Source: a virus
Lineage: Duplodnaviria; Caudoviricetes
DNA: 64,000 nucleotides
Reading direction: 5' to 3' (one strand)
Virus record (IMG/VR): IMGVR_UViG_3300018068_000002
Span: 21,423 to 85,422 of that record
In this document: positions 21,176-64,000 of the stretch, piece by piece
How the letters are laid out: each line of letters starts with the position of its first letter
How positions within the stretch are numbered: the stretch's first letter is position 1
Made by a program: the position numbers and the translations under genes
Notes under the pieces: model-generated
Told to the model about the DNA's origin: nothing
Database searches by the model: none
Seen by the model: the letters and a program-made list of their open reading frames with translations, nothing else

Positions 21176-21664
21176 TTATCCCTCCTTACTGGTTTTTTCA
21201 TCTCTTTTCTCTCTTTGAATTTTTTCTACATCTACATGATAATTTTTTCTGATATAATCAGATTTTTCTATAGTTAATTGTTTTGGAGTATTAATTGTAG
21301 TTTCGATAAGAATTTCAAGAGTTCCATCTGACATATTTTTCATTTTTTCAACAAATTCTGTAAATTCAGTTACGTATAACAAACCAAGAATTTGATTTTT
21401 ATCCAAAACGATTTTTTTCTCATTGTACATTTCTGGATCTTCTTCTTCTAACTCTAATTTTATCCTACAATTTTTATCTTCTATATATAGATATCCTCTA
21501 TCAAAAAGATTCTTTGTATCTGGATCGTAAATGCACTTTTCTAATTCATCAAAAGGAACTTTTTGGCGCGCATTTTCACCTTTCCAAACTCTTTCTCTTG
21601 TTTCTCCCGGTACACGGTAAAAAACAATTCCACTAACCATTTTTCTAACAACATAATTTTCCAT
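21176..21664 (-). CDS. hypothetical head-module protein
   Basis: 162 aa ORF with GGAG RBS. Confidence 0.65.
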   Translation of the reverse strand: MENYVVRKMVSGIVFYRVPGETRERVWKGENARQKVPFDELEKCIYDPDTKNLFDRGYLYIEDKNCRIKLELEEEDPEMYNEKKIVLDKNQILGLLYVTEFTEFVEKMKNMSDGTLEILIETTINTPKQLTIEKSDYIRKNYHVDVEKIQREKRDEKTSKEG

Positions 21665-26144: not shown

Positions 26145-27850
26145 CTCCTAGGTGTATAGAAAACCATACTCATTGGATTTTTACGATGGTTTCTTAATGT
26201 TTTAAAATGCTCCTCTTCTAATATCTTTATTCTCCAAACACCATATTCAAATGCTGAGAATTTATCTTTACCCATTCTACTATTTATTCTTTCTAATAAA
26301 ATTCCATTATAATCAGGTTTTGCACGCAAATTACACATTTCATCTAAAAGTCTACTAGTCATTTCATAAGGCATTAACTGAGCAATACGTTCTTCTGGAG
26401 CCATTTTAGATCCCTTTTGAGTCGCTAGCAATTTGTGTTTAGCTTCTTGTTCTTTAATTAAAAATCGAATTTTTCCACTCATTAATTCAGCAAAACAAGT
26501 GCTATGAATTTCACTATTCAATTTTGGATTCGCTTTAATAACGAAAATTTTTCTTTGACAATCACGAGGTTGTTTAGCAATATAATCTTCATCGTTAATT
26601 ACACCGTAAGGTGGGTAGAAATTACCCTTTTCATCAATATTTGGTTTTATTACAAAATCAAGTAATCCAACACCAATACCAGTACCATCAATAACTACTT
26701 GTTTAGCTTGGAATTGTTCCATAACTTTCTTAAGTTCTATTGATTGTTCTTCAAAGTGTTTATTATCTAGTATTTTGACATTTACCAATTTTTTTAAAAA
26801 ATAATCCTTTTGTGGCATAATCTTAAAAATGCAAAAAACAGTCTGTGCTACTATTCTGCCGACGTCTACACTAATTAAGTAAAACATATCTTTGTTGCTT
26901 ACTACGGTTTTTGTAAATTTTTTCTCGGCATTAACTATTTTTCTATATTTTAACATACGCCCATAGTCAAACCAACTTTCACTGTTGCCGCCAGTCCAAT
27001 AACTAAGATATTCTCGCGCAAAATCTCCTTCTTTAAATGTTCCAGAAATTCTTTGATCTTCAATATGTTTTCTAGATACTAATTTATGCATCATTGGAAT
27101 TCTAACATCAAGTCCCATAACAAAATTATCTTTTGGAGCTATAATACTCTTCAAAAGAACTTCAATAAGTTTTTCATAAGCATATGTTGATTTTGATCCT
27201 GCAGATGTACTATAAATTTGGGCATGTTGTGGTTCATTATCATTTATTGTTCCATTCTTCATACGACGATCAAGTGTCATCAAAGGAAGAATAACTTGGT
27301 TAAGCATATCTTGATCATGATCGCGCACTTCGTCAATGAGGCCGCCATTACGCCGTCCACCACGTGCAGAATCTAATGCACCAACAATAGTAAACTCAGA
27401 ACCGTTACGAAACCAAAGATGAACATTAGCAGAAGACATATTTTTACGTATGATCTCCTTTTCGAGGAATGGAAAAGTGCGCCATATTTCCTCAATTTTC
27501 TCTCCTGCAATAGATATGCCTTGTCCCTTTCCTGGAGCACATATAAATTGTTTTGAAGTTGGCTGGAAAATGCACCGTAAATACAAAGCCAACACTGCAA
27601 GAAATGTTTTTGATGTACCACGACCTGCTGTAATGTAAACATACGAATAGCGCATACAGGCGCGCAAGTACATCCTTTGAAAGAAATATAAAGTAAAACC
27701 ACTATCTTTCGGAGTAATGAGATCAATAAATAAGTCAGGATATACCGTAAAGAGTGCCATATACTTTTGAAGTAATTCAGCATTTCCATCTATTTTCTCT
27801 TGAGTGAGCATAGCTCCTTTATCTAATTTTATATTAAAATCTCTTCTCAT
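26141..27850 (-). CDS. terL: terminase large subunit
   Basis: Walker A AGRGTSKT, Walker B GLIDEVRD, coupling STSAG, nuclease ISVDVGR, VVIDGTGIG, KDKFSA. Confidence 0.92.
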   Translation of the reverse strand: MRRDFNIKLDKGAMLTQEKIDGNAELLQKYMALFTVYPDLFIDLITPKDSGFTLYFFQRMYLRACMRYSYVYITAGRGTSKTFLAVLALYLRCIFQPTSKQFICAPGKGQGISIAGEKIEEIWRTFPFLEKEIIRKNMSSANVHLWFRNGSEFTIVGALDSARGGRRNGGLIDEVRDHDQDMLNQVILPLMTLDRRMKNGTINDNEPQHAQIYSTSAGSKSTYAYEKLIEVLLKSIIAPKDNFVMGLDVRIPMMHKLVSRKHIEDQRISGTFKEGDFAREYLSYWTGGNSESWFDYGRMLKYRKIVNAEKKFTKTVVSNKDMFYLISVDVGRIVAQTVFCIFKIMPQKDYFLKKLVNVKILDNKHFEEQSIELKKVMEQFQAKQVVIDGTGIGVGLLDFVIKPNIDEKGNFYPPYGVINDEDYIAKQPRDCQRKIFVIKANPKLNSEIHSTCFAELMSGKIRFLIKEQEAKHKLLATQKGSKMAPEERIAQLMPYEMTSRLLDEMCNLRAKPDYNGILLERINSRMGKDKFSAFEYGVWRIKILEEEHFKTLRNHRKNPMSMVFYTPRR

Positions 27851-50492: not shown

Positions 50493-50677
50493 AAAACCTC
50501 TTTTATATTTTTACTCTATTATAATTATAACAAAATTAGAGATAATTGTCAATCTATTGACAACTATTAAAAGATATGATATTTATTCATTATTATATAC
50601 GCGCGCGAGAAGTCAAAATATTGACTTAAGTTTAAAGATATAGTATAATAATATTATAAAAACAAAAGGAGAAAAAG

Positions 50678-50989
50678 ATGTCAAATATATTTGATCGAGA
50701 TTTTGAAAGTGAAGTTAAGAAAATGAGAAAATTGAAAGGTAGATATAATTTACCGGAAGATTTTGACACATGGGATTCTTTTGAAAAAATTATGTTGATT
50801 TCTATTTTCCATTGTGAAATGCGAAAAATGCTTATTGTGAAGAATAGAATTTTCTTTACTAGCCTCGCATTATTCGGTTCAATTACATCCTTTATTTCTC
50901 TCCCTTGGGGAATTTGGAATGCTGTTCTTGCAACCTTTATGGGTTATTTAAATGAAAAAAAGATTGTTGACACCTTCGCAAAAATGTAG
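50678..50989 (+). CDS. small membrane protein
   Basis: Two hydrophobic segments. Confidence 0.6.
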   Translation: MSNIFDRDFESEVKKMRKLKGRYNLPEDFDTWDSFEKIMLISIFHCEMRKMLIVKNRIFFTSLALFGSITSFISLPWGIWNAVLATFMGYLNEKKIVDTFAKM

Positions 50990-51002
50990 TATAATTATAA
51001 AT

Positions 51003-51122
51003 ACGGTGGTAGTGTAATGGCAAGCACAGTTGACCAAAAAAATGTATCTGGACATAGGTGCATACAGCAACTTTAATTAATACAATCTGCAAGAGTAGGT
51101 CCAATTCCTACCCACCGTACCA
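51003..51122 (+). ncRNA. tRNA-like RNA whose anticodon loop is replaced by an approx. 50-nt stem-bulge module
   Basis: Acceptor ACGGTGG/CCACCGT+ACCA, D arm GTGT/GCAC, T arm GTAGG-TCCAATT-CCTAC; insert A7-TGTATCTG-GACA-TAGGTGCA-TACAGCAA. Confidence 0.75.
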
Positions 51123-51171
51123 GTGTTTGGTTTGTCAGTAGACTTCCGTTGTGTAAGTAACTGTTATTTAT

Positions 51172-51247
51172 CTACCTCTAGCACAACTGGAAGTGCAACA
51201 TTTTTCTAAAGTGTTGGTTACAGGTTCGAGCCCTGTGAGGTAGACCA
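51172..51247 (+). tRNA. tRNA-Arg(TCT)
   Basis: Cloverleaf, loop TTTCTAA, TTCGAGC, CCA. Confidence 0.9.
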
Positions 51248-51291
51248 ATTTTAACACTTTGGTAGTTTGAGTGTATAAAATTACCATACAT

Positions 51292-51369
51292 GGCCAATTC
51301 GTATAATGGTTAGTACAGCGAGCTTTGACCTCGCAAGCGGAATAGGTTCAATTCCTCCATTGGCTGCCA
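51292..51369 (+). tRNA. tRNA-Gln(TTG), bulged T stem
   Basis: Stem GCGAG/CTCGC, loop CTTTGAC, CCA; 3 extra nt in the T stem. Confidence 0.85.
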
Positions 51370-51527
51370 CAAGGAAGATTGCCCGCAAAGGCATAAAACT
51401 CTCGCCGCTAAAGGAGACAAATAACTGTGTAGGAAACTTGGCAGTTGGAAGATGATTAATAAATTGATATAAAAGGAGTAATTGATTATGAGGAATACAA
51501 TCTTGTAACACTTAGGAGGTGTTGCAT

Positions 51528-51704
51528 ATGTCGCTTGATAAAGCAATTAAATCTGGAAAAGAACATCGTAAACCGTATTATGGAGCACAAGCCTGTGATG
51601 CAAGTTGTAGGCCACACGGTGGTTGCACATATTGTAGAGAAGGTAGACTTCATAAATATAAAAAGAAAATGTTAAAAGAAAAAGATTATAAATCAGAAGT
51701 TTGA
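51528..51704 (+). CDS. small basic conserved phage protein
   Basis: ATG after AGGAGG; MSLDKAIKSGKEHRKPY...SCRPHGGCTYC. Confidence 0.7.
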   Translation: MSLDKAIKSGKEHRKPYYGAQACDASCRPHGGCTYCREGRLHKYKKKMLKEKDYKSEV

Positions 51705-52060
51705 CATTAGTTAAAAAGTATGATATACTATAAGAGTAAGAGTGGTAAAAGTGCTCCCTCTTATATTTAGAAACGCAGATTCCGCACATCTGGCAATTGT
51801 GAAAAACTTTATTCTCACATATAGCATATCAAAGCTCTTGACAAATGTGTGAGAATGTACTACACTAAGTATATGGTTATAAGTGTGGGCTATGAGCCTG
51901 ATCTTCGGGAAGTTTATCTGGTCAAAAAAGAAACTTCGACCCCTGCCGTGGTTGGTAAATGGCGTGTGGACGCGGATCATGCGTTCGAGACTACTGGGAA
52001 CAAAACTCTTAGTGAGACAAAATCCCTGCTGTTGGCAGATCAGTAAAACTGCCATCATAT

Positions 52061-52135
52061 TCCTTCGTGATGAAACTGATATCATGCTTGACTGTTAATC
52101 AAGTTTTCTAGGTTTAAATCCTAGCGTTGGAGCCA
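52061..52135 (+). tRNA. tRNA-Asn(GTT)
   Basis: CTTGA-CTGTTAA-TCAAG; two U-U acceptor mismatches; T loop TTTAAAT; CCA. Confidence 0.85.
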
Positions 52136-52204
52136 TGACGCTTTGGCGTTATTTTCGGGACAAATAAACAAAACCCGTATTTAATTTGAGATAAGAGAAA
52201 AATA

Positions 52205-52885
52205 ATGAATCAATATCGTAAATTTTTACTAATTGCGATGGGGTTCATGACTTTTTTTATTGTTAGCACAAAAAGTTTTGCACTAAATGGTGTAAGCATA
52301 ACAGAATTAATTGCGAAGGCTAAAAGTAAAATTTGGCAAGAATACCCAGGTATAGAAGAAATATGGCCTCCGTGTTTAAACGAACATTTTACTATTCAAG
52401 AAACAGTGATTCTAATAATTAAAAAAACAATTGCAACAACGGGAACAACAACAACAATAGCGACAACAACAATAACAGAAAAAGAAACTCAATCAACTGG
52501 AGATTATTGGATAGATGAAATTGTGAGATTAACAAATGAAGCAAGAATTAATGAAAGATTAAGTGAATTAAAACTTAGTTCTTCTCTTAATCTAGCCGCA
52601 TCAATTCGTGTAAATGAATTACCAAATAGTCCAGATATTCATATAAGACCAAATGGAGAACACTTCTATACAGTCTTTAATGAAGTTGGTCTTTCTCCAT
52701 CGAGAGGTGGAGAAAATTATAGTATTGCTACTGCAAACTGTTATTCTCCAGAACAAATTGTAAATGCTTGGTTGGCTTCACCAACTCATAAAAAAAATAT
52801 TATGAATGGTGAATATACTAAAATAGGTATTGGACATTGTATAAGTGGTGATGATGAATATTTTGAACAACTTTTTACAAATTAA
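52205..52885 (+). CDS. exported CAP (SCP-like) domain protein
   Basis: N-terminal signal/TM, Thr-rich linker, LTNEAR...HIRPNG...GEN...VNAWLASPTHKKNI..EYTKIGIG. Confidence 0.85.
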   Translation: MNQYRKFLLIAMGFMTFFIVSTKSFALNGVSITELIAKAKSKIWQEYPGIEEIWPPCLNEHFTIQETVILIIKKTIATTGTTTTIATTTITEKETQSTGDYWIDEIVRLTNEARINERLSELKLSSSLNLAASIRVNELPNSPDIHIRPNGEHFYTVFNEVGLSPSRGGENYSIATANCYSPEQIVNAWLASPTHKKNIMNGEYTKIGIGHCISGDDEYFEQLFTN

Positions 52886-52924
52886 ATATTTGACTTCAAT
52901 TAAAAATTATGTTATAATTATATT

Positions 52925-53150
52925 ATAAGGTTAAGAGAAATCTTGTGTCGTTTTGCAGTATCGGAGAAACTGCACGTCTAATCAAATAGCTTTTGGCTCG
53001 TTCGTCGTTAAGACGAACCTTGGATAGAGTTGCCAGCGTGAAGGTACAATAGATCGCTGGACGAAATCCCACACTATAATCTTGAGTTATACCTAGGAAG
53101 ATGCTCATAACAAGGTGTGGAACTGTGCACAGTCTAGTAAACCAAAAGAT
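52925..53150 (+). ncRNA. unnamed structured RNA candidate
   Basis: After a consensus promoter, no plus-strand ORF; stems TGCAGT/ACTGCA, GTTCGTC/GACGAAC, CCAGCG/CGCTGG, CCACAC/GTGTGG. Confidence 0.5.
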
Positions 53151-53221
53151 ATTTGATTAGGCGTAAAAATCTAAATTCTCTCCAAAAACAGCAGTAAAAG
53201 TGATTTTTCTGGTGAAAATAT

Positions 53222-53297
53222 GGCACTATCTTCTAATGGATTCGGAAAGCGGCCCTTCAAGTCGTTAATCAGAGTTTAATTCTCTGTAGTGTCACCA
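53222..53297 (+). tRNA. tRNA-Glu(TTC)
   Basis: Loop CCTTCAA, T loop TTTAATT, CCA. Confidence 0.85.
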
Positions 53298-53298
53298 T

Positions 53299-53628
53299 TG
53301 ACAAGCTACCGTCATAAAACAAGCCGTGCTTAGGCCACGTTAAACTCCTATGACCTAGTTATGTCATTAAACCAACTTCCAAGGAATGTACACCTAACTG
53401 TCAAAAGCTAAAAGTACCGAACAGTCAATCGTCAGGAACTTGGTAATTGCGCCATGAAGCAATGGGTCGTTATACACCTTTAATAAAGTATAACGAGGAA
53501 TTCATTCCGATAAAATGGACGGCTTCCAACACTCCGTAAGTTGAACCCAAACCGGAAAGGTAGATATGTTGGCTGATACTTGGCTAAGAGCTAAGCGCGC
53601 ACTCGTAAGTGCAATGATAAACTTGTCA
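53299..53628 (+). ncRNA. unnamed approx. 330-nt structured RNA candidate
   Basis: Ends pair (TGACAAG/CTTGTCA); internal stems CGTG/CACG, ATGAC/GTCAT, GTTATAC/GTATAAC, GCAC/GTGC; no ORF. Confidence 0.55.
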
Positions 53629-53696
53629 TTTAAAATAAGTGAGTCGCCCGACCAGCAGGCGATATAGCGGATATTGCTTCCGATGCTGGTTTATAT

Positions 53697-53772
53697 GGTA
53701 GTGTACTCAAACGGTCAAGAGGAACGTCTGATACGCGTTTATTAATAGGTCCGACTCCTATCACTACTACCA
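53697..53772 (+). tRNA. tRNA-Ile(GAT)
   Basis: AACGT-CTGATAC-GCGTT; T loop TCCGACT; CCA. Confidence 0.8.
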
Positions 53773-53898
53773 CAGTTCTCTTCATAGTCGTCGTTAGTCG
53801 ATAAAGACGAAAAACTCGACCACCAAGTTCTTCGGAACTCAAACATTTGACAACACTCAAAAACTATGTTATAATTATATTATAGCAATTGGAAATGC

Positions 53899-54465
53899 AC
53901 CTTGACATTACTAATAAATAATCTTAACCCAGTGAAGAACGTCTAATCAACGTGCTGGGAGTTTAGGTATATTGAGTTATCTATAAATGGGATACTTTTT
54001 ATAGGTAGGACTTTTTAATAGTAGTAATACTGTTAATCGAGAGGGAAACCCTCAAGGATAACTAGACGTGCTTATTGTATTGGAAGAATAAGACACACAA
54101 CTTTTCGGCGTCGTAATAGGCAGCCCTGCGGGAAAGAAGCCAGCAAGTCATTGATGGGAGTCAATGAACCGCTACTGGTAACTCCAAACAAGACGTTTCG
54201 TTGTGAAACACAGAAATGTGATATAAGAAAAGTAGGTGGTTCGAGTAGCTCAAGACGAATTCTGGTGATAAAGAGATTTACAACTCAATTCTGAATGATG
54301 GGTGAAAGTTGCAGGAAAAAAATCCTGTGCGTGCTAGGTCGAAAGATTGGGCAGGAAGTTAGAGGTCGCTCCTCGAAGCTCAGACCTGTCTACACGGTGG
54401 TCGAATATTCCCTAATATGATTGGTAAGGCGAAAGTCTAAAATTATTTGTTAGTAATGTTAAGGT
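53899..54465 (+). ncRNA. ROOL-like large ornate RNA
   Basis: 22-bp terminal helix 53901-53922/54442-54463; blocks AGTGAAGA, TGGGATACT, GAGTAGCT, GTGAAAGTT, GAGGTCGCTCCTC match ROOL segments as recalled; approx. 570 nt; promoter at 53848; tRNA context. Confidence 0.75.
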
Positions 54466-54472
54466 TCAATTA

Positions 54473-54528
54473 AAGATACTCACAGCAACTTCATTTTCAC
54501 CAAGGATATGAAAAACCCAAAGTATCTT
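54473..54528 (+). ncRNA. ACAGCAA stem-bulge RNA, copy b
   Basis: AAGATACT-CACAGCAA-payload-AGTATCTT. Confidence 0.7.
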
Positions 54529-54534
54529 GTATAC

Positions 54535-54609
54535 GGTTTCGTAGTTCAATGGACAGAATAGTGGATTGTCACTTCACAGACGCCAGTTCAATTCTGGTCG
54601 ATACCGCCA
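54535..54609 (+). tRNA. tRNA-Asp(GTC)
   Basis: GTGGA-TTGTCAC-TTCAC, TTCAATT, CCA. Confidence 0.88.
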
Positions 54610-54611
54610 TA

Positions 54612-54860
54612 GGCAAGTACGCCTTTAAAGTGCCGATACCGCAAATCGTTAAAGGATCAGGCAACTCGATGGGAAGTTGTGACTCGCCAATCCGTCCACG
54701 ATTGGTCGGAGTGTCTTCTCCGAGATCAAAGAACAGTACAATAATGTGCTATAGAGGTTGCGGCCGCACCTCAAATTATCCCGCTATCTTTATTGGGAAA
54801 AGGAAAGACGGATTTTAGCGATTAGTTATACGTAGTGCACGTAAAGGCGCAACTATCGCA
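54612..54860 (+). ncRNA. unnamed structured RNA candidate
   Basis: Consecutive hairpins CAACT/AGTTG, CCAATC/GATTGG, TCGGAG/CTCCGA, GAGGT/ACCTC, GCGAT-AGTT/AACT-ATCGC. Confidence 0.5.
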
Positions 54861-54869
54861 ACCAAATTA

Positions 54870-54921
54870 AAGATACTCACAGCAGCCTTAAAAACAAATT
54901 GTTAATGATAAAATGTATCTT
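54870..54921 (+). ncRNA. ACAGCAA stem-bulge RNA, copy c
   Basis: AAGATAC-TCACAGCAG-payload-GTATCTT. Confidence 0.7.
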
Positions 54922-54941
54922 GTTTAAAAAAATAATTATTA

Positions 54942-55000
54942 TAGGCACTTACAGCAATTTTAAAACTAGTAAAATCGTATTTACACTTTTAAAGTGTCTA
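54942..55000 (+). ncRNA. ACAGCAA stem-bulge RNA, copy d
   Basis: TAGGCACT-TACAGCAA-payload-AGTGTCTA. Confidence 0.7.
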
Positions 55001-55038
55001 GTTAAATACATTGGCAGATGTATAAACTGCCACCATAT

Positions 55039-55111
55039 CGCAGGGAGAATTGGCATTCAAGTGAGGCTCATAACCTTACCTCCACAGGATCGTAACCTGT
55101 CCCTGCCCCCA
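55039..55111 (+). tRNA. tRNA-Met(CAT), initiator-like, shortened D loop
   Basis: C1 mismatch, GTGAGG-CTCATAA-CCTTAC, T loop ATCGTAA, CCA. Confidence 0.8.
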
Positions 55112-55293
55112 GTAGAGAGTGATTTATATCACTCTCTTTTTCTTGATTTTAGTCTGTACTTATGCTATAATTATAATAATAATTATATTATTACTCTAGT
55201 TAAAAAGAAAAAAATTGAATGGCAGTAACGTTGACTAAAATCAATACGTATGATATAATATTATTATAATAAAAATGAAAGAGGAGACTACTT

Positions 55294-56262
55294 ATGGATA
55301 CCAAAGCTAGAGTTAGAGCAAGAGAATCTCTCGGAGTACTTGAACAGGCACTTGCCGAAATTTTTGCAGAAAAGAAAGCTGATGAAATCGCAGGTCAAGT
55401 CTTAAATTCTGTTAAAACAAAAATTGATTTGTTTATTAAAGAGAATTACGGGGATCTTCCTCGTAAAACTACTATTCGTTATAATACAAAAGATATTAAG
55501 TTTGATGAGGTTGTTCATGAAAAATTTGAAACAATTTTGTCTTTCGTTCACCAAAATGAACCTGTTTTTATCACTGGACCTGCTGGTTCTGGTAAAAACG
55601 TAATTTGTAAACAAATTTCAAAAGCTCTTGATCTAGAGTTCTATTTTGCCAACGCTGTTACTCAGGAATATAAAATTACTGGATTTACAGATGCTATGGG
55701 ACGTTATCAAGAATCTCAATTTTATAAAGCCTTTAAAGATGGCGGGTTATTCATGCTGGACGAAGTTGATGCTTCTATTCCAGAAGTTTTGATTATTCTT
55801 AATGCCGCTATTGCTAATAGATACTTTGACTTTCCTGCGCCTATTGGAAAAATTGAAGCACACGAAAACTTTCGTATCATTGCCGCAGGTAACACTTTCG
55901 GTACTGGTGCTACATATCAATATGTTGGACGTAATCAGCTTGATGCCGCATCTCTTGACCGTTTTGCAGTAATCGAAGTTAATTACTCTGAAAATATTGA
56001 AAAAAGTGTTTGCCAGAATAATACTGAACTTATCACTTTCTGCCGCGACTTCAGAGAAGCTGCACGCAAAGCAGGAACTCAGACTATTGTTAGCTACCGT
56101 GCTATGGGTCGTATTGCTAGAATGGAAGATAATCTTGACATGGAAACTCTTCTTAAATCTAGCTTGCTTAAAAACCTAGAAAGAGACGATATCAAAATGA
56201 TTATCGGTGGTTTGAAGCATCAGAATAAATATAGAAGTGCTTTGGAGAGGATGGTAAAATAA
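55294..56262 (+). CDS. MoxR/CobS-like AAA+ ATPase
   Basis: GPAGSGKN, MLDEVD, IAAGNT, LDAASLDRF. Confidence 0.88.
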   Translation: MDTKARVRARESLGVLEQALAEIFAEKKADEIAGQVLNSVKTKIDLFIKENYGDLPRKTTIRYNTKDIKFDEVVHEKFETILSFVHQNEPVFITGPAGSGKNVICKQISKALDLEFYFANAVTQEYKITGFTDAMGRYQESQFYKAFKDGGLFMLDEVDASIPEVLIILNAAIANRYFDFPAPIGKIEAHENFRIIAAGNTFGTGATYQYVGRNQLDAASLDRFAVIEVNYSENIEKSVCQNNTELITFCRDFREAARKAGTQTIVSYRAMGRIARMEDNLDMETLLKSSLLKNLERDDIKMIIGGLKHQNKYRSALERMVK

Positions 56263-57093
56263 ATGAATATCCAGGGAGAAGTTAAAACTTCTGATGGTAG
56301 AATTAAATATGAAATCTTTGAAAGTACAAGCGAACTTGCTGTATCCAACAAAGAGAGAAAATTTAGACATGGTGACGATACTATGCGTAGAAGCATTGGT
56401 GGAGATTGGCATGGTGTTAAATCATATGATGAAGCTGAAGAACTTCTCTCTAATGGTTGGACATATAAAACCGATGAATTGCGTAAAGTAATTAATGGTG
56501 TTGAAAAGAAAATTTATGAAAAAAGAACTTCTTTTAAAAACAATGTAGTAGGATACGTTCCTATTGTTCCATTGGCTATTCAAGGAGTTCCAAACTCTAT
56601 GATTGATGTTCATTATAAACCAATGAAATCGAAAATTGTTGATATTTATTACGATATTACTGTAAACTGCGGCACTTCTCCAGAAGAAATTTTGAAGCAA
56701 GGGATTGCAATTACAGAAGCAATTATTGATCTTGAAAGACAAGGATATCGTGTAAGACTTAGTGGGGTACAAAGCTATTCTAGCAGCAAAACTGCTGATT
56801 TGCTAGTTATTCGTATTAAAAATGAATCTCAACCTCTTGATCTAAAACGTATTATGTTTCCAATGATGCATCCTGCTATGTTTAGAGTTATTGGATTTGC
56901 ATGGTATGAAAGATGTCCATTTTCTACTGAGCGTAGTGGCTACGGTCATAATATGAGTAGTGAATGGGAATATGAACAAATTAAAGAAATGATGCAAAAA
57001 GCGTTTGGAACAAGTATTATCTATCTAGGAGCTGCTAAAATGGGTAATGATCCAAGAGCATATATTGAAGAAAAATTGAAAGGATTAAAATAA
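56263..57093 (+). CDS. vWA-like (CobT-like) partner protein
   Basis: Abuts the ATPase; DITVNCGTS, AIIDLERQGYRVRL, MHPAMFR. Confidence 0.7.
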   Translation: MNIQGEVKTSDGRIKYEIFESTSELAVSNKERKFRHGDDTMRRSIGGDWHGVKSYDEAEELLSNGWTYKTDELRKVINGVEKKIYEKRTSFKNNVVGYVPIVPLAIQGVPNSMIDVHYKPMKSKIVDIYYDITVNCGTSPEEILKQGIAITEAIIDLERQGYRVRLSGVQSYSSSKTADLLVIRIKNESQPLDLKRIMFPMMHPAMFRVIGFAWYERCPFSTERSGYGHNMSSEWEYEQIKEMMQKAFGTSIIYLGAAKMGNDPRAYIEEKLKGLK

Positions 57094-57185
57094 GAGGCGA
57101 AAGTCCTCTTATTTTTTTCAAATTGTTGACTCTAGTTAAAATTTATGATATAATTATATTATAATGATGAAAGTAGAGAAAAGAT

Positions 57186-57380
57186 ATGAGAGACCCCAGA
57201 AGAATCACAGGAACTCTTAGAATTTTTGAAAGACTCTGGAATAGACATCCAGATCTTAGATTCCAACAAATTGTTGATTTAATCAATACTGAAATTATTT
57301 TTAGTGGAAAAGATCCTCACTATATTGAAGAAGAAAAATTAAATGAAATCATAATTAAATTGATTAATAAGACCTACTAA
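57186..57380 (+). CDS. small conserved phage protein
   Basis: MRDPRRI...W..HPDLRFQQ. Confidence 0.7.
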   Translation: MRDPRRITGTLRIFERLWNRHPDLRFQQIVDLINTEIIFSGKDPHYIEEEKLNEIIIKLINKTY

Positions 57381-57406
57381 TTGAGTTTTTTTAACTCAAT
57401 TTTTAT

Positions 57407-57472
57407 GGCTCATACTCAAGGCGAGGGCAATGTTTCATACACATTTGCAGAAATGGTGGCATTTTGCCACCA
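57407..57472 (+). pseudogene. truncated tRNA(CAT) remnant
   Basis: D-like CTC/GAG and AATGT-TTCATAC-ACATT arms, but no T arm; ends in the hairpin TGGTGGCA-TTT-TGCCACCA. Confidence 0.5.
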
Positions 57473-57525
57473 AAATCTTGTGATTTATTCTAAATAAATC
57501 TACATCTATTATAGGAGGTGATTTT

Positions 57526-58206
57526 ATGGGATTAATTTATAAAATTACAAATATAATAAATGGTAAAATGTATATTGGACAAACATCTTTTTCTTTAGAG
57601 CAAAGATGGATTAAACATTGTTATGATGCAAAAAAAGAAACAATGGAACAAAGACCTTTATACCAAGCAATGAATAAGTATGGAAGTGAAAATTTTCAAA
57701 TTGAAAAAATAGAAGATTGTGAAGATGATGATTTAGGTTGCCGAGAAATTTATTGGATTAATAAACTTGATACTTATAAAAATGGATATAATGCTACTTA
57801 TGGTGGCGAAGGTAAAAAACTTTTTAATACTGAAGAAATAATTAAAACATATGAAATGGGATTTTCATATGAGAGTACAGCAAAAGTAGTTGGATGTTGT
57901 CCATCTACTGTTCAAAAAACAATTAAAAGTAAAGGATATTCAAGAAAACCTTTTGAATATTTGTTAAAAAAACAAAAAGCAATAAATCAATATTCATTAA
58001 ATAATGAATTTATTCAAACATTTGATTCTGCTGCGGAAGCAGCAAGATACCTTCTCAATCAAGGTATTATAAAAAACTATAGTGGTGGAATAAGAAGTCA
58101 TATTGCTGACGCTGCAAAAGGAATAAAAAGAAAAACTGCTTATGGATATAAGTGGAAATTTGTAGAAAATTTGCCAGAAGACCAAGGAGGTAGCAATCTT
58201 TCATAA
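57526..58206 (+). CDS. free-standing GIY-YIG homing endonuclease (Seg-like)
   Basis: GLIYKITN...MYIGQT, GYN, NUMOD1-like C-terminus. Confidence 0.9.
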   Translation: MGLIYKITNIINGKMYIGQTSFSLEQRWIKHCYDAKKETMEQRPLYQAMNKYGSENFQIEKIEDCEDDDLGCREIYWINKLDTYKNGYNATYGGEGKKLFNTEEIIKTYEMGFSYESTAKVVGCCPSTVQKTIKSKGYSRKPFEYLLKKQKAINQYSLNNEFIQTFDSAAEAARYLLNQGIIKNYSGGIRSHIADAAKGIKRKTAYGYKWKFVENLPEDQGGSNLS

Positions 58207-58244
58207 GGATTCGCGATTAGGTTCAAATCCTAATTTTGGCACCA
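58173..58244 (+). tRNA. tRNA(CAT), Met or Ile2; overlaps the endonuclease 3' end
   Basis: GCCAGAA/TTTTGGC, AATCT-TTCATAA-GGATT, TTAGG-TTCAAAT-CCTAA, CCA. Confidence 0.75.
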
Positions 58245-58299
58245 TAGGCACATACAGCAAATCAATTGGATTTGAAATCCCGCTAAAAAAAGGTGTCTA
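58245..58299 (+). ncRNA. ACAGCAA stem-bulge RNA, copy e (leader of the DUF2828 gene)
   Basis: TAGGCAC-ATACAGCAA-...GGA-TTTGAAA-TCC...-A7-G-GTGTCTA, then GGAG RBS. Confidence 0.75.
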
Positions 58300-58317
58300 G
58301 AAGGAGATAAAGGAAAA

Positions 58318-59841
58318 ATGTTTATAACAGAATTAAAGAAAGAAGTAGCTCGCTCAACTGTACAACTCACTGAAAATGGTGCTTTAGGATTTTCACAAAC
58401 TGGTAAAGCTCTTTTAGATATGAATTTCAGAGTTTCAAGCTATCGTAATTTAGATGAAGATAAAATCTTCTCTGATTTTATGAAAGCATTTAATGAAAAT
58501 GAAATTATGACTATGCGTTGGCTTTTTTATGTCCGCGATATTCGTGGAGGTCTTGGTGAACGCAGACTTTTTAGAGTAATTACTGAAAAGATGACTTTAG
58601 AAAATTCAGAAATGATGGAAAAAGTCCTTGGACTCATTAGTGAATTTGGACGTTGGGATGATGTTCTTGTTTTCATGGGAACTCCTATTGAAAACAAAGT
58701 TAAAATTTTAATTGCAAAACAATTAAAAGAAGATATTGAGAATATGAAAAAGGGGGAATCTATTTCTTTGCTTGCAAAGTGGATGCCTTCTATTAACGGT
58801 TCTAATAAAGAACGTAAAATTACAGCAACAAAACTTGCTAAATCATTTGGAATGGATCAAAGAACTTATCGTAAGACTCTTTCAGAGTTGCGCGCTTACC
58901 TTGATATTGTAGAACGTAAAATGACTACAAAAAGATGGGGAGACATTGAATATAGTGGAGTTCCTTCTCGCGCGAACTTGCTTTATAATAAAGCATTTTT
59001 ACGTAATGATGAAGAACGTCGTCGTGAATTTTTAGGAAAAGTTGAAAAAGGAGAGAAAGAAATTCACTCTGCAACTAACTTTCCTCATGATATTGTGCAT
59101 AAGTATATGAGCTATAAAGCAAAAGATCAAACTCTTGAAGAATTGTGGAAAGCTCTACCTAACTATGGTGAAGATATGGTTAATACCCTTGTCGTTGCTG
59201 ATGGTTCAGGTTCAATGACTTGTACAACAGTAGGAAATACTAAGATTCTACCATTGTCAGTTGCTAATGCTTTAGCAATTTATTTTGCAGAACATTGTGT
59301 AGGTGGATTCAACAATACCTATATTACATTTAGTGAAACTCCTCAAATTGTTTCTTTGGGAAAAGGAACTCTTTATAGTAAACTTAAAATTGCACAAAGC
59401 CATAATGAAGTAGCTAATACTAATATTGAAGCTGTGTTTAATCTTATTCTAAGTACTGCAAAAAGTGCGGGAATGAAGCAGGAAGAACTTCCTGCTACAA
59501 TTCTCATTATTTCAGATATGGAATTTGATAATTGTACTAATTCAACAGGATATTATGGAAGCAGAACTGGATTCAAAACTCCTAATAAAACTCTTTTTGC
59601 AGAACTCGCAAACCGTTATGCAAATGCTGAATATAAACTTCCAAAACTAGCTTTTTGGAATATTATGTCTCGTACAATGACTATTCCTGTAATTGAAAAT
59701 GAAGCAGGAGTAACTCTAATTTCAGGTTTTAGCCCTACTTCAATTAATATGGTTCTTGCAGGAGAAGCAGATCCCTATAAAGCACTTGAAAAAGTACTTA
59801 TGAATGAACGTTATGATGTAGTTGAAGAAGCTATTTCTTGA
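58318..59841 (+). CDS. DUF2828 family protein (Ro60/TROVE-like helical domain + vWA)
   Basis: TENGA, RDIRGGLGERRLFR, GRWDD, LLAKWMPS, VADGSGSM, ISDMEFD. Confidence 0.85.
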   Translation: MFITELKKEVARSTVQLTENGALGFSQTGKALLDMNFRVSSYRNLDEDKIFSDFMKAFNENEIMTMRWLFYVRDIRGGLGERRLFRVITEKMTLENSEMMEKVLGLISEFGRWDDVLVFMGTPIENKVKILIAKQLKEDIENMKKGESISLLAKWMPSINGSNKERKITATKLAKSFGMDQRTYRKTLSELRAYLDIVERKMTTKRWGDIEYSGVPSRANLLYNKAFLRNDEERRREFLGKVEKGEKEIHSATNFPHDIVHKYMSYKAKDQTLEELWKALPNYGEDMVNTLVVADGSGSMTCTTVGNTKILPLSVANALAIYFAEHCVGGFNNTYITFSETPQIVSLGKGTLYSKLKIAQSHNEVANTNIEAVFNLILSTAKSAGMKQEELPATILIISDMEFDNCTNSTGYYGSRTGFKTPNKTLFAELANRYANAEYKLPKLAFWNIMSRTMTIPVIENEAGVTLISGFSPTSINMVLAGEADPYKALEKVLMNERYDVVEEAIS

Positions 59842-59907
59842 CAAATTTCAATTAATATAATATAATTATATTATAAGGTTGGGAGAAGAACCTCCCAACC
59901 ACTATAT

Positions 59908-59983
59908 ACAGGGCGAAGTATAATGATTTTGTATGCAACACTTGGGCTGTTGTGGAGCGGTTTGATTCCGACGCCTTGTACCA
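59908..59983 (+). tRNA. tRNA-Pro(TGG), weak T stem
   Basis: CAACA-CTTGGGC-TGTTG, T loop TTTGATT, CCA. Confidence 0.8.
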
Positions 59984-59991
59984 GGAGAATT

Positions 59992-60354
59992 ATGAAATGT
60001 TTTTATTGTGAGTCTGAATTTGAAATTAAAAAAACTCAAGGCGGGCAAAATAGACAATTTTGTTATTTTTGTTTACCAGAAAATTCAGATAAAGAAGAAA
60101 GAGAAAAATTAAAAACAAAATTATTATATCAAAAAGCAAATAAAATAAAATTTGAAAGAGGTTGTGATATTTGTGGATACAATAAATGTGCATCTGCTTT
60201 AGAATGGCATCATGAAGGGAATGATAAAGAAAATAATCCTGCAAATTTTATGAGAAAAGGAACTATAAAACAATATCAAGAATATGAAAAAGAAATAAAA
60301 AAATGTATTCTATTATGTGCTAATTGTCATAGAGAAATTCATTCAAAAGAATAA
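59992..60354 (+). CDS. HNH endonuclease
   Basis: ATG after GGAG right after tRNA-Pro; CDICG...ALEWHH...LLCANCHREIH. Confidence 0.85.
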   Translation: MKCFYCESEFEIKKTQGGQNRQFCYFCLPENSDKEEREKLKTKLLYQKANKIKFERGCDICGYNKCASALEWHHEGNDKENNPANFMRKGTIKQYQEYEKEIKKCILLCANCHREIHSKE

Positions 60355-60402
60355 TCAATCATATAAAATTCTGTCATTCCGACCAATGAAAAGGAGAAAG
60401 TT

Positions 60403-60618
60403 ATGTCAAAAAAATACATTGTATCAGAACAAAGACTTCGAGACTTAATTGAAGCAGAAGAAAAACTTTGCGCACTTAATGCAGGTGGAGTAGATAATTG
60501 GTCATGGTATGGAGAATCTATGCGTGATTATGTAATAGCGCAAGGACTTGAAGATTCAGATGATCCATTTGAAGAAATAGTTGATAAGGAAATTCTTAAT
60601 TATCAGGAAAAATACTAA
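60403..60618 (+). CDS. small conserved phage protein
   Basis: LCALNAGGVDNWSWY. Confidence 0.75.
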   Translation: MSKKYIVSEQRLRDLIEAEEKLCALNAGGVDNWSWYGESMRDYVIAQGLEDSDDPFEEIVDKEILNYQEKY

Positions 60619-60621
60619 TTT

Positions 60622-60890
60622 GCCGACGAGGGGAAATAGTCGTTAAATAATTCTCAGCTCGGTGGCTAAACCGCTAATTTCTTCTTCGAGAGTTCGAGTC
60701 TCTTCACTTGTCAGTGCTGACTGGAAGGTTGAAGTATTAGTGTAGAACAAGTTTCCCCCTACTAATTTATGTCGTATAAATGGAAGTAGGCAGTACAAAG
60801 CGAGAATTAACGACATAGCTGAGTACACGTTGCGAACGGGAATGCGCGACAACTAATATATTGGAAGTTGGCTGGCCTGCCTTTTCCTTA
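60622..60890 (+). ncRNA. unnamed pseudoknotted RNA candidate
   Basis: GGGGAAA/TTTCCCC, GTCGTTAA..TAATTCTC/GAGAATTAACGAC, AGGCAG/CTGCCT, T-loop-like GAGAG-TTCGAGT-CTCT. Confidence 0.55.
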
Positions 60891-61000
60891 TTATAAAAAA
60901 TACCACTGTTATGTAATTTATAGGGAAGTTTTCTACATAAAAGTAGAGACCACCTAAAAATTATATTATGGTGGTATTTTGTATATGGAGGATGGTAATT

Positions 61001-61150
61001 ATGCCTTATAAAAGCGAAAAACAACGTAAGTTCTTCCATTCAAAAGGTGCAGCAAAAGCTGGTATTACAAAAAAAGATATTAAAAAATGGGACAAAGAAT
61101 CAAAAGGTCGTAAAATTCCAAATAAAGTAAAACGCAAAAAGGGGAAATAA
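61001..61150 (+). CDS. small Lys-rich basic protein (49 aa)
   Basis: ATG after GGAGG; MPYKSEKQRKFFH. Confidence 0.7.
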   Translation: MPYKSEKQRKFFHSKGAAKAGITKKDIKKWDKESKGRKIPNKVKRKKGK

Positions 61151-61152
61151 AA

Positions 61153-61251
61153 ATGGCAAAAGACAAAGATAAGGGAAAGAAAGAAGAAAAGAAACAACCA
61201 AAAGACAATAAGAAAGCTGCTCCAAAGAAGGGTGGAAAGGGAAGTAAGTAA
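61153..61251 (+). CDS. Lys-rich micro-protein (32 aa)
   Basis: MAKDKDKGKKEEKKQPKDNKKAAPKKGGKGSK, read manually. Confidence 0.55.
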   Translation: MAKDKDKGKKEEKKQPKDNKKAAPKKGGKGSK

Positions 61252-61372
61252 TATGACTTGCGCGACCGGTGGCGGAAAAAGAAAGGTAAAGGTAAAAAAA
61301 AAGGTTAATTCAAGAGGGAGATAGTCTCCCTCTTGACTTATTATCGAAACTATGATATAATATTAATATGAG

Positions 61373-61675
61373 GTGGGATATGTGGAACACGTAGATACAA
61401 TCTTAGATTTTTTAGATGAATATGGATATAATATGAGTTATGCAAATGATGGTGAAAAATCTTTTGCTAATGAAGCTTACGAGGTAATGAGAGAAAAAGC
61501 AAAATCTCAAAATGCTTTTATGTATTTTAATGGGAATCTACACAATTGGGAAAAATTTCTTTTTAGAAGAAATAATATTTTGTACTCTTGGTCTTGCGTT
61601 TATGCTCCTCGTCCATACTATATTTTTGAAATAGTTGGAGAAACTATTTATAAAGTATTTAATTATGAGGGATGA
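61373..61675 (+). CDS. hypothetical protein
   Basis: Own promoter; start uncertain. Confidence 0.5.
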   Translation: MGYVEHVDTILDFLDEYGYNMSYANDGEKSFANEAYEVMREKAKSQNAFMYFNGNLHNWEKFLFRRNNILYSWSCVYAPRPYYIFEIVGETIYKVFNYEG

Positions 61676-61752
61676 TTTAATCTAGGGGACTCCTGGAACC
61701 TCTCTGCAAAAGAGGCAATTAGAAGTTTGACTCTTCCATCTCTCTCCAATAC

Positions 61753-61836
61753 GCCGGACGAATCTTAAACTTGGGAGGCCTAGGGCAAAGCTCCAAACTT
61801 TGTGATAAAGGAGATCGTTACTTCCGTTCGGTGCCA
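61753..61836 (+). tRNA. tRNA-Trp(CCA)-like with an enlarged D region
   Basis: GCCGGAC/GTTCGGT, CAAAG-CTCCAAA-CTTTG, T loop ATCGTTA, GCCA end. Confidence 0.6.
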
Positions 61837-61853
61837 AAAGAAAGGGGGATTAT

Positions 61854-62138
61854 ATGAATAAATTAAAGTATATTCGAGCAAAAGAAATTGAAGAATTAAT
61901 TAATGATTTGGAAAAAGAAATTGACGGTTTAAAAAAACACGCTTTATTCTCTGTTGATTGCGATAGAATTACTATTTTTATGAAAAAAACATTTTTAGAC
62001 GATTACGGTAATTATAATAAAACAGAAGTAATAGAAACAGAATTAGACTCAGGAATACTTTATAATTATTATAGAGAAGCAATTGGGGCTAAAGAAAAGA
62101 AAATTAAAACTCTTGAAGAGGAGTTTGATAATCTATGA
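61854..62138 (+). CDS. hypothetical protein
   Basis: 94 aa with RBS. Confidence 0.6.
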   Translation: MNKLKYIRAKEIEELINDLEKEIDGLKKHALFSVDCDRITIFMKKTFLDDYGNYNKTEVIETELDSGILYNYYREAIGAKEKKIKTLEEEFDNL

Positions 62139-62326
62139 CAAATTCTATGAAACACAAAATTAATAATATGACTTATGAAGAAATGCTATATCTTTGGCGT
62201 TTCTCTCCATCTGGATATGAGTTCTTCCAAGGAGAAATTGGAGAATATTTTTCAAAAGTAATGGCTGAAAAAAAGAAATTAGTTGATCATGCTCAAATTT
62301 CAAAAATAATTGGTTGGAAAGAATAG
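62135..62326 (+). CDS. small conserved phage protein
   Basis: MTYEEMLYLWRFSPSG..FFQGEIGEYF. Confidence 0.7.
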   Translation: MTNSMKHKINNMTYEEMLYLWRFSPSGYEFFQGEIGEYFSKVMAEKKKLVDHAQISKIIGWKE

Positions 62327-62381
62327 TTGACTTCAGTTAAAAATTATGTTATAATTATATTATAGAAAGTGAGAAAAATAA

Positions 62382-62651
62382 ATGATGAAAGAAAGACGCA
62401 AACACTATGTCATTCCCTACATTATTATTGATGGCACTCCACAAATCTATGATGTAATGGCATTTAATAATTTAGATGCAATTCAAAAATTAGCATTTGA
62501 TTTTCTTGTAAATGATGATGAAGGTTTTGATTTCGATACTCTCGAAAATAAAATTTATTGTTGTAATTTGAATGATATATATGAAATACTTCAAGATCGT
62601 GAAATTTATGTTGGAGAACCATATCAAATTATAGTTGGAGGATTAGAATGA
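62382..62651 (+). CDS. acidic hypothetical protein
   Basis: 89 aa with own promoter. Confidence 0.6.
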   Translation: MMKERRKHYVIPYIIIDGTPQIYDVMAFNNLDAIQKLAFDFLVNDDEGFDFDTLENKIYCCNLNDIYEILQDREIYVGEPYQIIVGGLE

Positions 62652-62899
62652 AAAGTGATTTTAAAGATAAAATTTATACTTTCACAGTTGAAAATGATGA
62701 TGGTTCAAATAAAATTGAAATCATTCGTACTTCTAATTGGGAGGGTTTAAAACCTTGGCAACAACTTAATATGTTTAAAATACTTCTTCTTCAACAATCT
62801 TGGAGTGAAGATTTAGTTAAACGAATTAGAGAACTTGATAATGATGAACTTGAAATTCTTAAAAAAGAAGATTGTCCTATTCTTGAAGAATATAGATAG
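62648..62899 (+). CDS. hypothetical protein
   Basis: 83 aa coupled ORF. Confidence 0.6.
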   Translation: MKSDFKDKIYTFTVENDDGSNKIEIIRTSNWEGLKPWQQLNMFKILLLQQSWSEDLVKRIRELDNDELEILKKEDCPILEEYR

Positions 62900-62919
62900 G
62901 GTGCTTTGCGCCCTCATAT

Positions 62920-62996
62920 GGGCGTATAGCATAAATGGCAAATGCACCAAACTTTTAATTTGGGTGATTGGAGTTCGAATCTCCATATTCCCACCA
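62920..62996 (+). tRNA. tRNA-Lys(TTT)
   Basis: CCAAA-CTTTTAA-TTTGG, TTCGAAT, CCA. Confidence 0.9.
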
Positions 62997-63474
62997 TCGG
63001 CTTTTATCTGTTTGTGCCGTAAAAACTAAATATTTCTCTTGCGTTGCTATTCAGCGGAAATGCGACTCTTGGGCGGTTAGGATCAAATCGGGTAATCGGC
63101 AGAACAACTGTACGAAACTGTGGAGCAATGAGTGGTCTCCACCCAGAAAGCACCCCTTAGTAATTACCAATTCATTCTTTAATGGAATTGGCGTGTCCAT
63201 ACGTCAGTTGGTGTTAGTAGCCGTAACTACTCGGTGATTGAGCTGTTTTCCTACGTTATTGGAAGGATCAGCAGTTATGTATTATCTATAAATACTTGGG
63301 TATTGTAAGTTTTACCTCAATGTAACTTGACGTTTCTCCTAGACGTAAATATAGAGCGGAGTGCCACTCCCGTAGGTTCGTGCACGAGCCATTGGCAAAG
63401 CAAGCTGATGCTTAATAAGTCGTACCACATTCGCGTTAAGTGGTCGTTTGGCAGAACGTAAAACTGCCTAATAT

Positions 63475-63553
63475 GGGGGATGGGACTGCATGAAGTGGTC
63501 GTTTGTCTTGCACACAAAAATTCAGATCGGTTTGATTCCGATATCCTCCACCA
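63475..63553 (+). tRNA. tRNA-Ala(TGC)
   Basis: G3-U70 pair, TTTGT-CTTGCAC-ACAAA, T loop TTTGATT, CCA. Confidence 0.85.
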
Positions 63554-63634
63554 AAACTCCACAATACTGTGGAGTTTTTTGACTCACTATTATTATCCAC
63601 TACATATTATTTGAGAGAATAATATGGAGGTTTT

Positions 63635-63946
63635 ATGCAAAAACTAACTCAAGAAGAATTTCAACAAAGAGTCAATGAAAATTCAAATGGACTTTATGAA
63701 GTTATATCCGAATATCAAGGAAAAGATAAAAAAGTAAAACTTCATTGTAAAAAGCATAATTGTGATTTTGAAAAAGTTGCTGATGCTGTAATGAGAAGAG
63801 AGGCAACAAGTTGTCCAGAATGTAAGAAAGAAAATTTTAATAAAGATAAAATTGAAAATCTTATTCCTTTATGTGTTATGTGCCATGCTAAAGTAACTAG
63901 AGGGTTAGCAAAAATAGAAAATCGTCAATTAGTTGACATTAATTAA
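63635..63946 (+). pseudogene. probable internally deleted HNH endonuclease
   Basis: N-terminal EEFQQRV...VKLHCKKH...SCPEC joined directly to ENLIPLCVMCHAKV; the HH half of the HNH core is absent. Confidence 0.55.
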
Positions 63947-64000
63947 AAATTATGTTATAATTATATTAGATGAGATGGAGAAACCCTATCTTGTCCACCA

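Follow-up and report, generated by a model that had tools for sequence, protein, structure and literature searches.

A Ro60-like DUF2828 protein and a family of ACAGCAA RNAs in phage tRNA islands: a probable counterpart of the Ro60/Y RNA particle

Why does a phage island of tRNAs and non-coding RNAs contain several copies of a small structured element with the motif ACAGCAA, one of which is located directly upstream of a gene for a DUF2828 protein? The question is raised by a Caudoviricetes genome from the IMG/VR database (record IMGVR_UViG_3300018068_000002), of which positions 21,423 to 85,422 were analysed (64,000 nucleotides, hereafter the window, whose coordinates are used throughout). 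In this 85-kb phage record, the structural genes are encoded on the minus strand, and the tRNA/non-coding RNA island starts at around 51 kb on the plus strand. An initial annotation, made from the sequence alone, proposed that five ACAGCAA elements and the DUF2828 protein, which was thought to resemble Ro60, form a ribonucleoprotein acting on tRNAs during host defence. The explanation favoured here is a related one: the ACAGCAA elements are probably Y-RNA-like cognate RNAs of DUF2828, a paralogue of Ro60, and carry tRNA-derived payloads that are presented to tRNA-recognising proteins.

The ACAGCAA elements form a covarying RNA family

All five elements are present at the positions first reported, four as free copies (b to e) and one, at 51036-51070, as a permuted module inside a 117-nt tRNA-like RNA (Table 1). 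The pattern ACNYACAGCAR is found on the plus strand at 54478, 54875, 54947 and 58250 and once on the minus strand at 23083, inside a coding region, which is a chance match; 0.25 matches are expected from shuffled sequences, and none of 100 shuffles reaches five. In each of the copies b to e, a 7-bp helix closes a structure that has a 5' bulge of the form N2-ACAGCA(A/G), an inner hairpin and, on the 3' side, a linker rich in A; the 3' G is unpaired. The closing helix reads AAGAUAC/GUAUCUU in two copies and UAGGCAC/GUGUCUA in the other two (d and e), and the G-U pair in the helix of d and e makes the structure possible only in the plus-strand RNA. Copy b lies 15 nt downstream of a ROOL RNA and 5 nt upstream of tRNA-Asp, and copy d upstream of tRNA-Met. 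Copy e begins directly after a tRNA CCA end and its last base is located 17 nt before the DUF2828 start codon. In the permuted copy, the order is 3' strand, short loop, 5' strand and ACAGCAA, and the place of the anticodon loop is taken by an A-rich linker, the capped helix UGUAUCU-GGAC..-AGGUGCA, AU-ACAGCAA and a U-rich linker. Positions 51003-51119 exceed the Rfam tRNA threshold (38.9 versus 29 bits) only because a 51-nt insert is skipped at the anticodon loop, and ARAGORN makes no call at 51003-51122, where a cloverleaf with a 7-nt anticodon loop is not formed.

Covariation among the window's own copies is thin, with two helix types only; with relatives included, however, the evidence for the compensatory changes first noted here becomes overwhelming. 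A covariance model, R1, was built from a seed of 23 elements with the outer helix as its sole structure; the helix was required for selection and the seed's own pairing statistics are therefore partly circular. Outside the seed, 23 matches from ten genera are paired in 160 of 160 cells, and all seven pairs covary. Among the 113 pooled elements there are 52 distinct helices, with pairing in 789 of 789 helix cells and covariation at all 7 pairs; CAGCAA is invariant, the preceding A is present in 108 elements and the 3' G in 106. That the structure acts at the RNA level is evident from the G-U pairs and the strand bias. A scan of the 85-kb record with R1 returns exactly four free copies (E 8e-9 to 4e-6) and no other match, and the restriction of the elements to the tRNA island thus holds for this phage.

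Three architectures can be distinguished. Type A, to which b to e belong, is a free form of 50-65 nt with a small hairpin payload that is often anticodon-loop-like. Of 112 unique elements, 36 have a payload hairpin with a 7-nt loop and 24 show the anticodon-loop signature (pyrimidine-U-NNN-purine-N), for which shuffles predict 0.6; the commonest 'anticodon' in these loops is UUU. Type B is found in FelixO1 (L013:7417-7552) and mycobacteriophage Finnry (L014:6533-6675). In these long variants, the ACAGCAA bulge and the 3' strand enclose a tRNA-like domain with the arm order of YrlA (T arm, acceptor-like hairpin, D arm); this domain is absent from b to e. The long Finnry element matches the Rfam YrlA model with 39.5 bits (E 1.8e-7; gathering score 69) at model positions 23-89 only, and its flanks, where YrlA has the Ro60-binding region, do not match the model. 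In type C, a capped module branches off a whole tRNA at the 5' strand of its anticodon stem, and this form recurs in 117-123-nt 'tRNAs' of related DUF2828 loci. The window copy has lost a recognisable anticodon loop, whereas the type C anticodons of relatives are genuine, namely Asn GUU (L001:5577 and L006:5561), Thr UGU (L007:5474) and Tyr GUA (L005:5533). Types B and C share one design in circularly permuted form, and type A equals type C minus the tRNA body, hence the resemblance of its hairpin to an anticodon arm.

The Ro60 fold of DUF2828 and its linkage to the elements

The protein encoded directly downstream of copy e matches PF11443 (DUF2828), PF25043 (DUF7788) and PHROG 850, annotated as 'RNA-binding protein'. 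These two Pfam families are the only ones found at E up to 0.01, and there is no match to TROVE (PF05731). The relationship to the Ro60 fold, named in the initial annotation, is confirmed by structure prediction. The AlphaFold2 (AF2) model has a predicted local distance difference test score (pLDDT) of 93.9, and its top 13 Foldseek matches (E 3e-8 to 6e-4) are all Ro60/TROVE chains, aligned over the full length. In VIA-align, 419 of 507 residues are superimposed onto Xenopus Ro60 (1yvr) with a Z score of 20.2 and a root-mean-square deviation of 3.7 Å; the top 10 entries are all Ro60/TROVE, whereas proteins with only a von Willebrand factor A (vWA) domain reach no more than Z 11. The MIDAS (metal ion-dependent adhesion site) is intact (DGSGSM, T368 and D400), and D295, S297, S299, T368 and D400 are invariant in 84 homologues and align to the MIDAS of Ro60. 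At the sequence level, a profile of the 84 homologues ranks Ro60 first among PDB sequences, if weakly (E 0.008), with similarity detectable at the MIDAS region only. A single-sequence phmmer search of the PDB gives no meaningful match, Ro60 being found by profile and fold search alone. Judged by its modelled structure, the DUF2828 protein is a distant paralogue of the Ro60 autoantigen with a predicted helical-repeat ring and a vWA domain. The family is large: 6424 representatives match at E<=0.001, a second database contains at least 8000 clusters, and DUF2828 is present in at least 711 sequenced phages, corresponding to about 1.4% of GenBank phage records.

The co-occurrence of the elements with DUF2828 that was suspected from this single locus is borne out in unrelated phages and in both search directions. 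Starting from the protein, the motif is present in 9 of 10 IMG/VR loci whose protein is 50-53% identical. Among 14 GenBank phage loci sampled across the tblastn ranking, 12 have R1 matches within about 0.5 kb of the gene and on the same strand; these are the loci of Listeria P100plus, Staphylococcus SEP9, a Twort-like phage, Salmonella FO1a (FelixO1), Citrobacter Maleficent, mycobacteriophage Finnry, Campylobacter F341, Bacillus Nate, Enterococcus TJE2, a Klebsiella phage, a Synechococcus phage and Aeromonas LAh_6. In 75 further IMG/VR loci, 155 R1 matches at E<=0.01 were obtained, all on the strand of the gene and distributed over 62 loci. Whole-genome scans of P100plus, SEP9, FO1a, Finnry, a 175-kb IMG/VR phage and the present record place nearly all R1 matches beside the gene. 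No element is found near the gene in Vibrio phage D486, and KVP40, which has a DUF2828 gene, shows a single weak R1 match 7 kb away. Four tRNA-rich phages, T5, T4, mycobacteriophage Bxz1 and Lactobacillus LP65 (8 to about 30 tRNAs each), have neither DUF2828 nor an R1 match; Bxz1 has a true Ro60. Starting from the RNA, a scan of all IMG/VR with the exact pattern AAGN5YACAGCAAYTTTAA yielded 68 matches, of which 21 have the closing helix and the 3' G. The contigs of 20 of these 21 were examined, and 18 carry DUF2828; of the other two matches, one lies on a 10%-complete fragment and one is probably a chance match. Pattern matches that lack the helix look like chance occurrences in coding sequence, save three long-payload elements adjoining the gene.

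Several further observations were made at DUF2828 loci. In Aeromonas phage Aeh1, an annotated 122-nt 'tRNA-Val' (L024 9151-9272), 2.8 kb downstream of the DUF2828 gene, contains a capped helix with ACCGCAA after it; R1 does not detect this module variant. A loose regular expression for capped modules produced mostly false positives and was abandoned, this variant being its only yield. Genes of the RNA-repair type near DUF2828 include the RtcB ligase of P100plus (L011 7842-9053) and RNA ligase 2 of LAh_6 (L021 10064-10987), and a band-7-like protein of Finnry (L014 2483-3415) was listed with them. In one IMG/VR phage, a RAGATH-16 RNA (Rfam RF03047, 68.8 bits; L007 105-177) is located about 6 kb upstream of the DUF2828 gene.

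A proposed ribonucleoprotein and its alternatives

In the proposed particle, the constant module, consisting of the 7-8-bp helix, the 5' bulge N1-2-ACAGCAA, the A-rich 3' strand of the internal loop and the unpaired 3' G, would be the docking site for the DUF2828 ring, comparable to the bulged helix and the GGUCCGA or GNCGAA motif of Y RNAs. The variable part would be tRNA-derived, either an anticodon-stem-loop-like hairpin (b to e), a YrlA-like 'elbow' of T arm, hairpin and D arm (FelixO1 and mycobacteriophage L) or a whole tRNA (51003-51122). The RNAs would be expressed from the strong early-type promoters of tRNA/non-coding RNA operons and released by tRNA-type processing. The particle could then present tRNA parts to tRNA-recognising proteins or tether the ring to them, and host RNases, tRNA-targeting defence nucleases and repair enzymes are candidate targets whose engagement would benefit the phage. 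The anticodon-loop-like payloads and the module-bearing whole tRNAs fit the idea of a decoy or tether, without proving it. A more specific version regards the module as a universal handle, by which the ring carries interchangeable tRNA parts, i.e. bare anticodon arms (most commonly UUU/Lys), tRNA elbows and whole tRNAs with Asn, Tyr and Thr anticodons. The particles would act as decoys or traps for tRNA-targeting defence nucleases such as PrrC, RloC, PARIS AriB or the retron/Septu nuclease PtuAB, or would shield phage tRNAs from these nucleases. This version is doubtful; if it were true, the payload set of each phage would record the tRNases deployed by its hosts.

Two published studies touch on relatives of the protein. 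Gp130 of the Felixounavirus Bas63, which from genus and gene position appears to be the orthologue of FelixO1 gp42, was described as Ro60-like, is encoded directly upstream of tRNA genes and acts against the defence system Ppl (PhageMaP preprint, PMC11482910). In Listeria phage CKA15, the P100-like homologue CKA15_055, likewise described as Ro60-like and encoded beside tRNA genes, matches Rsr in HHpred and is present in purified virions; the authors speculated that abundant RNAs encoded nearby are Y RNAs (PMC12282133). Both papers guessed that the nearby RNAs might be Y RNAs, and neither identifies these RNAs (PMC11482910, PMC12282133). DUF2828 with ACAGCAA elements is present in both lineages, the Felixounavirus and the P100-like phages. 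The Bas63 result, the only experiment on record, supports a counter-defence role of the protein, directed against Ppl and not against a tRNase.

A number of points weigh against the ACAGCAA RNAs as Y-RNA-like partners of DUF2828. We infer the binding of the RNAs by the protein from the analogy to Y RNAs, and yet the invariant (A)CAGCAA of 113 of 113 elements is unlike the Ro60-binding motif of all known Y RNAs (PMC4201824), and neither Y_RNA (RF00019) nor YrlA (RF02553) matches anywhere in the window at E up to 5-10. When produced on its own from a plasmid, Bas63 gp130 rescued T7 on a host with Ppl (PMC11482910), which implies that at least the activity against Ppl is independent of the phage's own RNAs. 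The most abundant RNA of CKA15 maps about 0.6 kb upstream of three elements and not onto them. No R1 match is present within about 4-5 kb of the gene in 13 of the 75 IMG/VR and 2 of the 14 GenBank loci. Finally, the proportions of paired cells lean towards the structure, since the seed was chosen by requiring the helix and later alignments were fitted to the model.

The assignment of the 'most transcribed region' of P100/CKA15 to the elements was considered and rejected, as the coordinates fit a separate RNA of about 540 nt, around 0.6 kb upstream. In P100plus, the non-coding stretch in question (L011 3413-3995) measures about 540 nt, is driven by a promoter, is closed by a long helix and has no Rfam match at gathering score; by coordinates, it equals the CKA15 region 26,236-26,727, reported to be by far the most abundant phage transcript.

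Three other explanations were weighed. The elements could be processing or spacer signals of polycistronic tRNA/non-coding RNA transcripts, recognised by a host or phage RNase, while DUF2828 merely shares the tRNA islands. Such a role would suit the position of the window elements, which flank tRNAs and the ROOL RNA, as well as the fact that copy e and L005:8508 each begin exactly after a CCA end; furthermore, the conserved 5' (A/U)AG and 3' G could be cleavage marks. However, the tRNA-rich phages T5, T4, Bxz1 and LP65 manage without the element, whereas it adjoins the gene in SEP9, Synechococcus phage BUCT-ZZ01 and Aeromonas LAh_6, which have few or no tRNAs at that place. P100 has three tandem copies with their own promoter, and the module is also located inside tRNAs, where cutting would destroy the tRNA. 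A mere processing signal is thus improbable.

It is just as improbable that the elements are solely cis-regulatory sites, bound by the DUF2828 protein to regulate its own mRNA or the tRNA operon without any trans-acting RNA. Copies are found equally often downstream of the gene (SEP9, FelixO1, Finnry and the Klebsiella phage), in tandem arrays, at a distance of kilobases (b to d) and inside tRNA-like RNAs, although the gene leader holds a copy in many loci and copy e ends beside the ribosome-binding site. Moreover, cis-regulation still needs the protein-RNA contact assumed for a Y-RNA-like particle and the two could apply together; leader copies, e among them, may have a cis-regulatory role. 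A small self-cleaving ribozyme that frees neighbouring tRNAs without a protein partner, similar to the hepatitis delta virus (HDV)-like theta ribozymes of gut phages, would agree with the size, the position directly after some tRNA 3' ends and the invariant six-nucleotide core with its conserved 3' G, but is very unlikely, as no ribozyme family of Rfam (hammerhead, HDV-like, twister, hatchet, pistol) matches 50500-64000 at E up to 5, about eight conserved nucleotides and one required helix are more typical of a protein site than of a catalytic core, and the linkage to one protein family would be left unexplained.

Neighbouring features and known counterparts

Table 1. Features of the tRNA/non-coding RNA island and the DUF2828 locus (window coordinates)
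Feature	Position	Strand	Description
Promoter TTGACA-17-TATAAT	50967-50995	+	12/12 sigma-70-type consensus; precedes tRNA-like RNA 51003-51122
Type C tRNA-like RNA	51003-51122	+	acceptor stem with encoded ACCA, D arm, T arm; Rfam tRNA 38.9 bits, 51-nt insert
Promoter TTGACA-17-TATAAT	53847-53875	+	perfect consensus; precedes ROOL unit
ROOL RNA	53904-54457	+	Rfam RF03087, 363 bits, full length; context only
Free element b	54473-54529	+	helix AAGAUAC/GUAUCUU, UC-ACAGCAA, inner hairpin, A-rich linker, 3' G; R1 44.4 bits, E 1.7e-7; fold z -2.8
Free element c	54870-54922	+	helix as in b; ACAGCAG replaces ACAGCAA; R1 44.6 bits
Free element d	54942-55001	+	UAGGCAC/GUGUCUA with G-U pair, UU-ACAGCAA, second helix UUUUAAAA/UUUUAAA; R1 48.8 bits, E 1.6e-8
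Terminator-like hairpin	55114-55137	+	after tRNA-Met; closes unit holding element d
AAA_5 gene	55294-56262		MoxR/CobS-like, PHROG 249; translationally adjacent to DUF7192, own promoter
DUF7192 gene	56263-57093		
Promoter TTGACT-17-TATAAT	57126-57154	+	11/12 consensus; precedes unit with copy e and DUF2828 gene
GIY-YIG/NUMOD1 homing endonuclease gene	57526-58206		ends within tRNA-like 3' half
Free element e	58245-58300	+	payload hairpin GGA-UUUGAAA-UCC, anticodon-loop-like 7-nt loop; R1 37.6 bits, E 7e-6
DUF2828/DUF7788 gene	58318-59841	+	507 aa; predicted Ro60-like alpha-solenoid ring and vWA domain (Pfam, PHROG phrog_850, AF2, Foldseek, VIA-align)

Besides the ROOL RNA, an Rfam scan of the window finds several tRNAs in the island. 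From its consensus match, the first promoter in Table 1 would place the transcription start close to the 5' end of the tRNA-like RNA, and the ROOL RNA and the elements b to d are a predicted co-transcript of the promoter at 53847-53875. The proposed system was originally drawn to extend from 51036 to 59841; within this range the DUF2828 gene and the RNAs stand as its parts, whereas the AAA_5 and DUF7192 genes drop out, as 24 other loci have neither of them within 4-6 kb of DUF2828. A three-part system of a MoxR-type AAA_5 protein, DUF7192 and the vWA protein was abandoned for the same reason. A megablast search of the 9-kb region against GenBank phages gave no match.

Some stretches of the island may encode further RNAs. 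A near-consensus promoter at 52890-52918 precedes about 770 nt that hold no convincing open reading frame (ORF) and extend up to tRNA-Ile (52890-53696). The start of this stretch shares ACGTCTAATCAA with the start of the neighbouring ROOL RNA, and a tRNA-Glu-like sequence near 53222-53297 is called by neither ARAGORN nor Rfam; the stretch is a candidate for a second large structured RNA. The roughly 250 nt that separate tRNA-Asp from element c (54610-54866) have a G+C content above that of the flanks, no Rfam match and a single ORF of 89 aa that overlaps the tRNA, and are possibly another non-coding RNA of the ROOL transcription unit. Positions 58207-58244, directly upstream of element e, resemble the 3' half of a tRNA (T arm, ...GGCACCA), and ARAGORN calls no tRNA there.

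The ACAGCAA elements are not a described Rfam family: none of them reaches the gathering score of Y_RNA or YrlA, and no paper or Rfam family describing them was found in a literature search of incomplete coverage. DUF2828 and its RNAs are apparently a widespread, undescribed counterpart of the Ro60/Y RNA particle in very different phages, among them well-studied or applied ones such as FelixO1, Listeria P100/A511, Staphylococcus SEP9 and Twort-like phages and mycobacteriophage cluster L. With candidate RNA partners named, the proposed particle becomes a defined and testable ribonucleoprotein, offering a concrete handle on how a Ro60-like protein counters a bacterial defence system. The family also accounts for dozens of mini-ORFs labelled 'hypothetical' in phage tRNA islands and for the unusual 'tRNAs' of 117-123 nt found there, and the R1 covariance model could become a new RNA family entry.

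Phage tRNAs and tRNA mimics are known to act against tRNA-cleaving defences, as shown for the T5 tRNA-Tyr, which acts against retron Eco7/PtuAB (PMC11555353). The ACAGCAA RNAs are likewise tRNA-derived, located in phage tRNA islands and often equipped with anticodon-like loops; T5-type tRNAs, however, are ordinary decoding tRNAs without a protein-docking module. Closer counterparts are the Ro60 or Rsr proteins with their Y RNAs and YrlA, which are also encoded by phages, for instance Ro60 with Yrl1/2 in Thermus phage phiLo (PMC12135203). As in these systems, the small RNAs are encoded within a few kb of the gene for a Ro60-fold protein and on the same strand, and have a terminal 5'/3' stem beside an internal loop with a short invariant motif. 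In the long variants, this part is joined to a tRNA-like domain with the T arm, hairpin and D arm order of YrlA, and one of them matches the YrlA core. In contrast, the motif is ACAGCAA here, whereas Y RNAs present GNCGAA(N)G or GGUCCGA to Ro60 (Chen et al. 2014, PMC4201824), most copies are 50-65 nt in length with an anticodon-arm-like hairpin only, and the permuted form resides within complete tRNAs with open acceptor ends. The DUF2828 protein shares with Ro60/TROVE proteins (1yvr, 2i91, 2nvo, 9l5y) the fold over its whole length, the C-terminal vWA domain with its MIDAS, a similar size and a gene beside tRNA-like RNAs, but belongs to Pfam DUF2828 and DUF7788 instead of TROVE, is 11-14% identical to Ro60, and its RNA binding is predicted only. 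The principle of Ro60 and Y RNAs would thereby be extended to a second protein family with a different recognition motif. A Ro60-fold protein combined with tRNA-mimicking RNAs is known from the earlier systems; new variants are the family to which the protein belongs, the motif for recognition and two forms of the RNA, the mini form and the one inside tRNAs.

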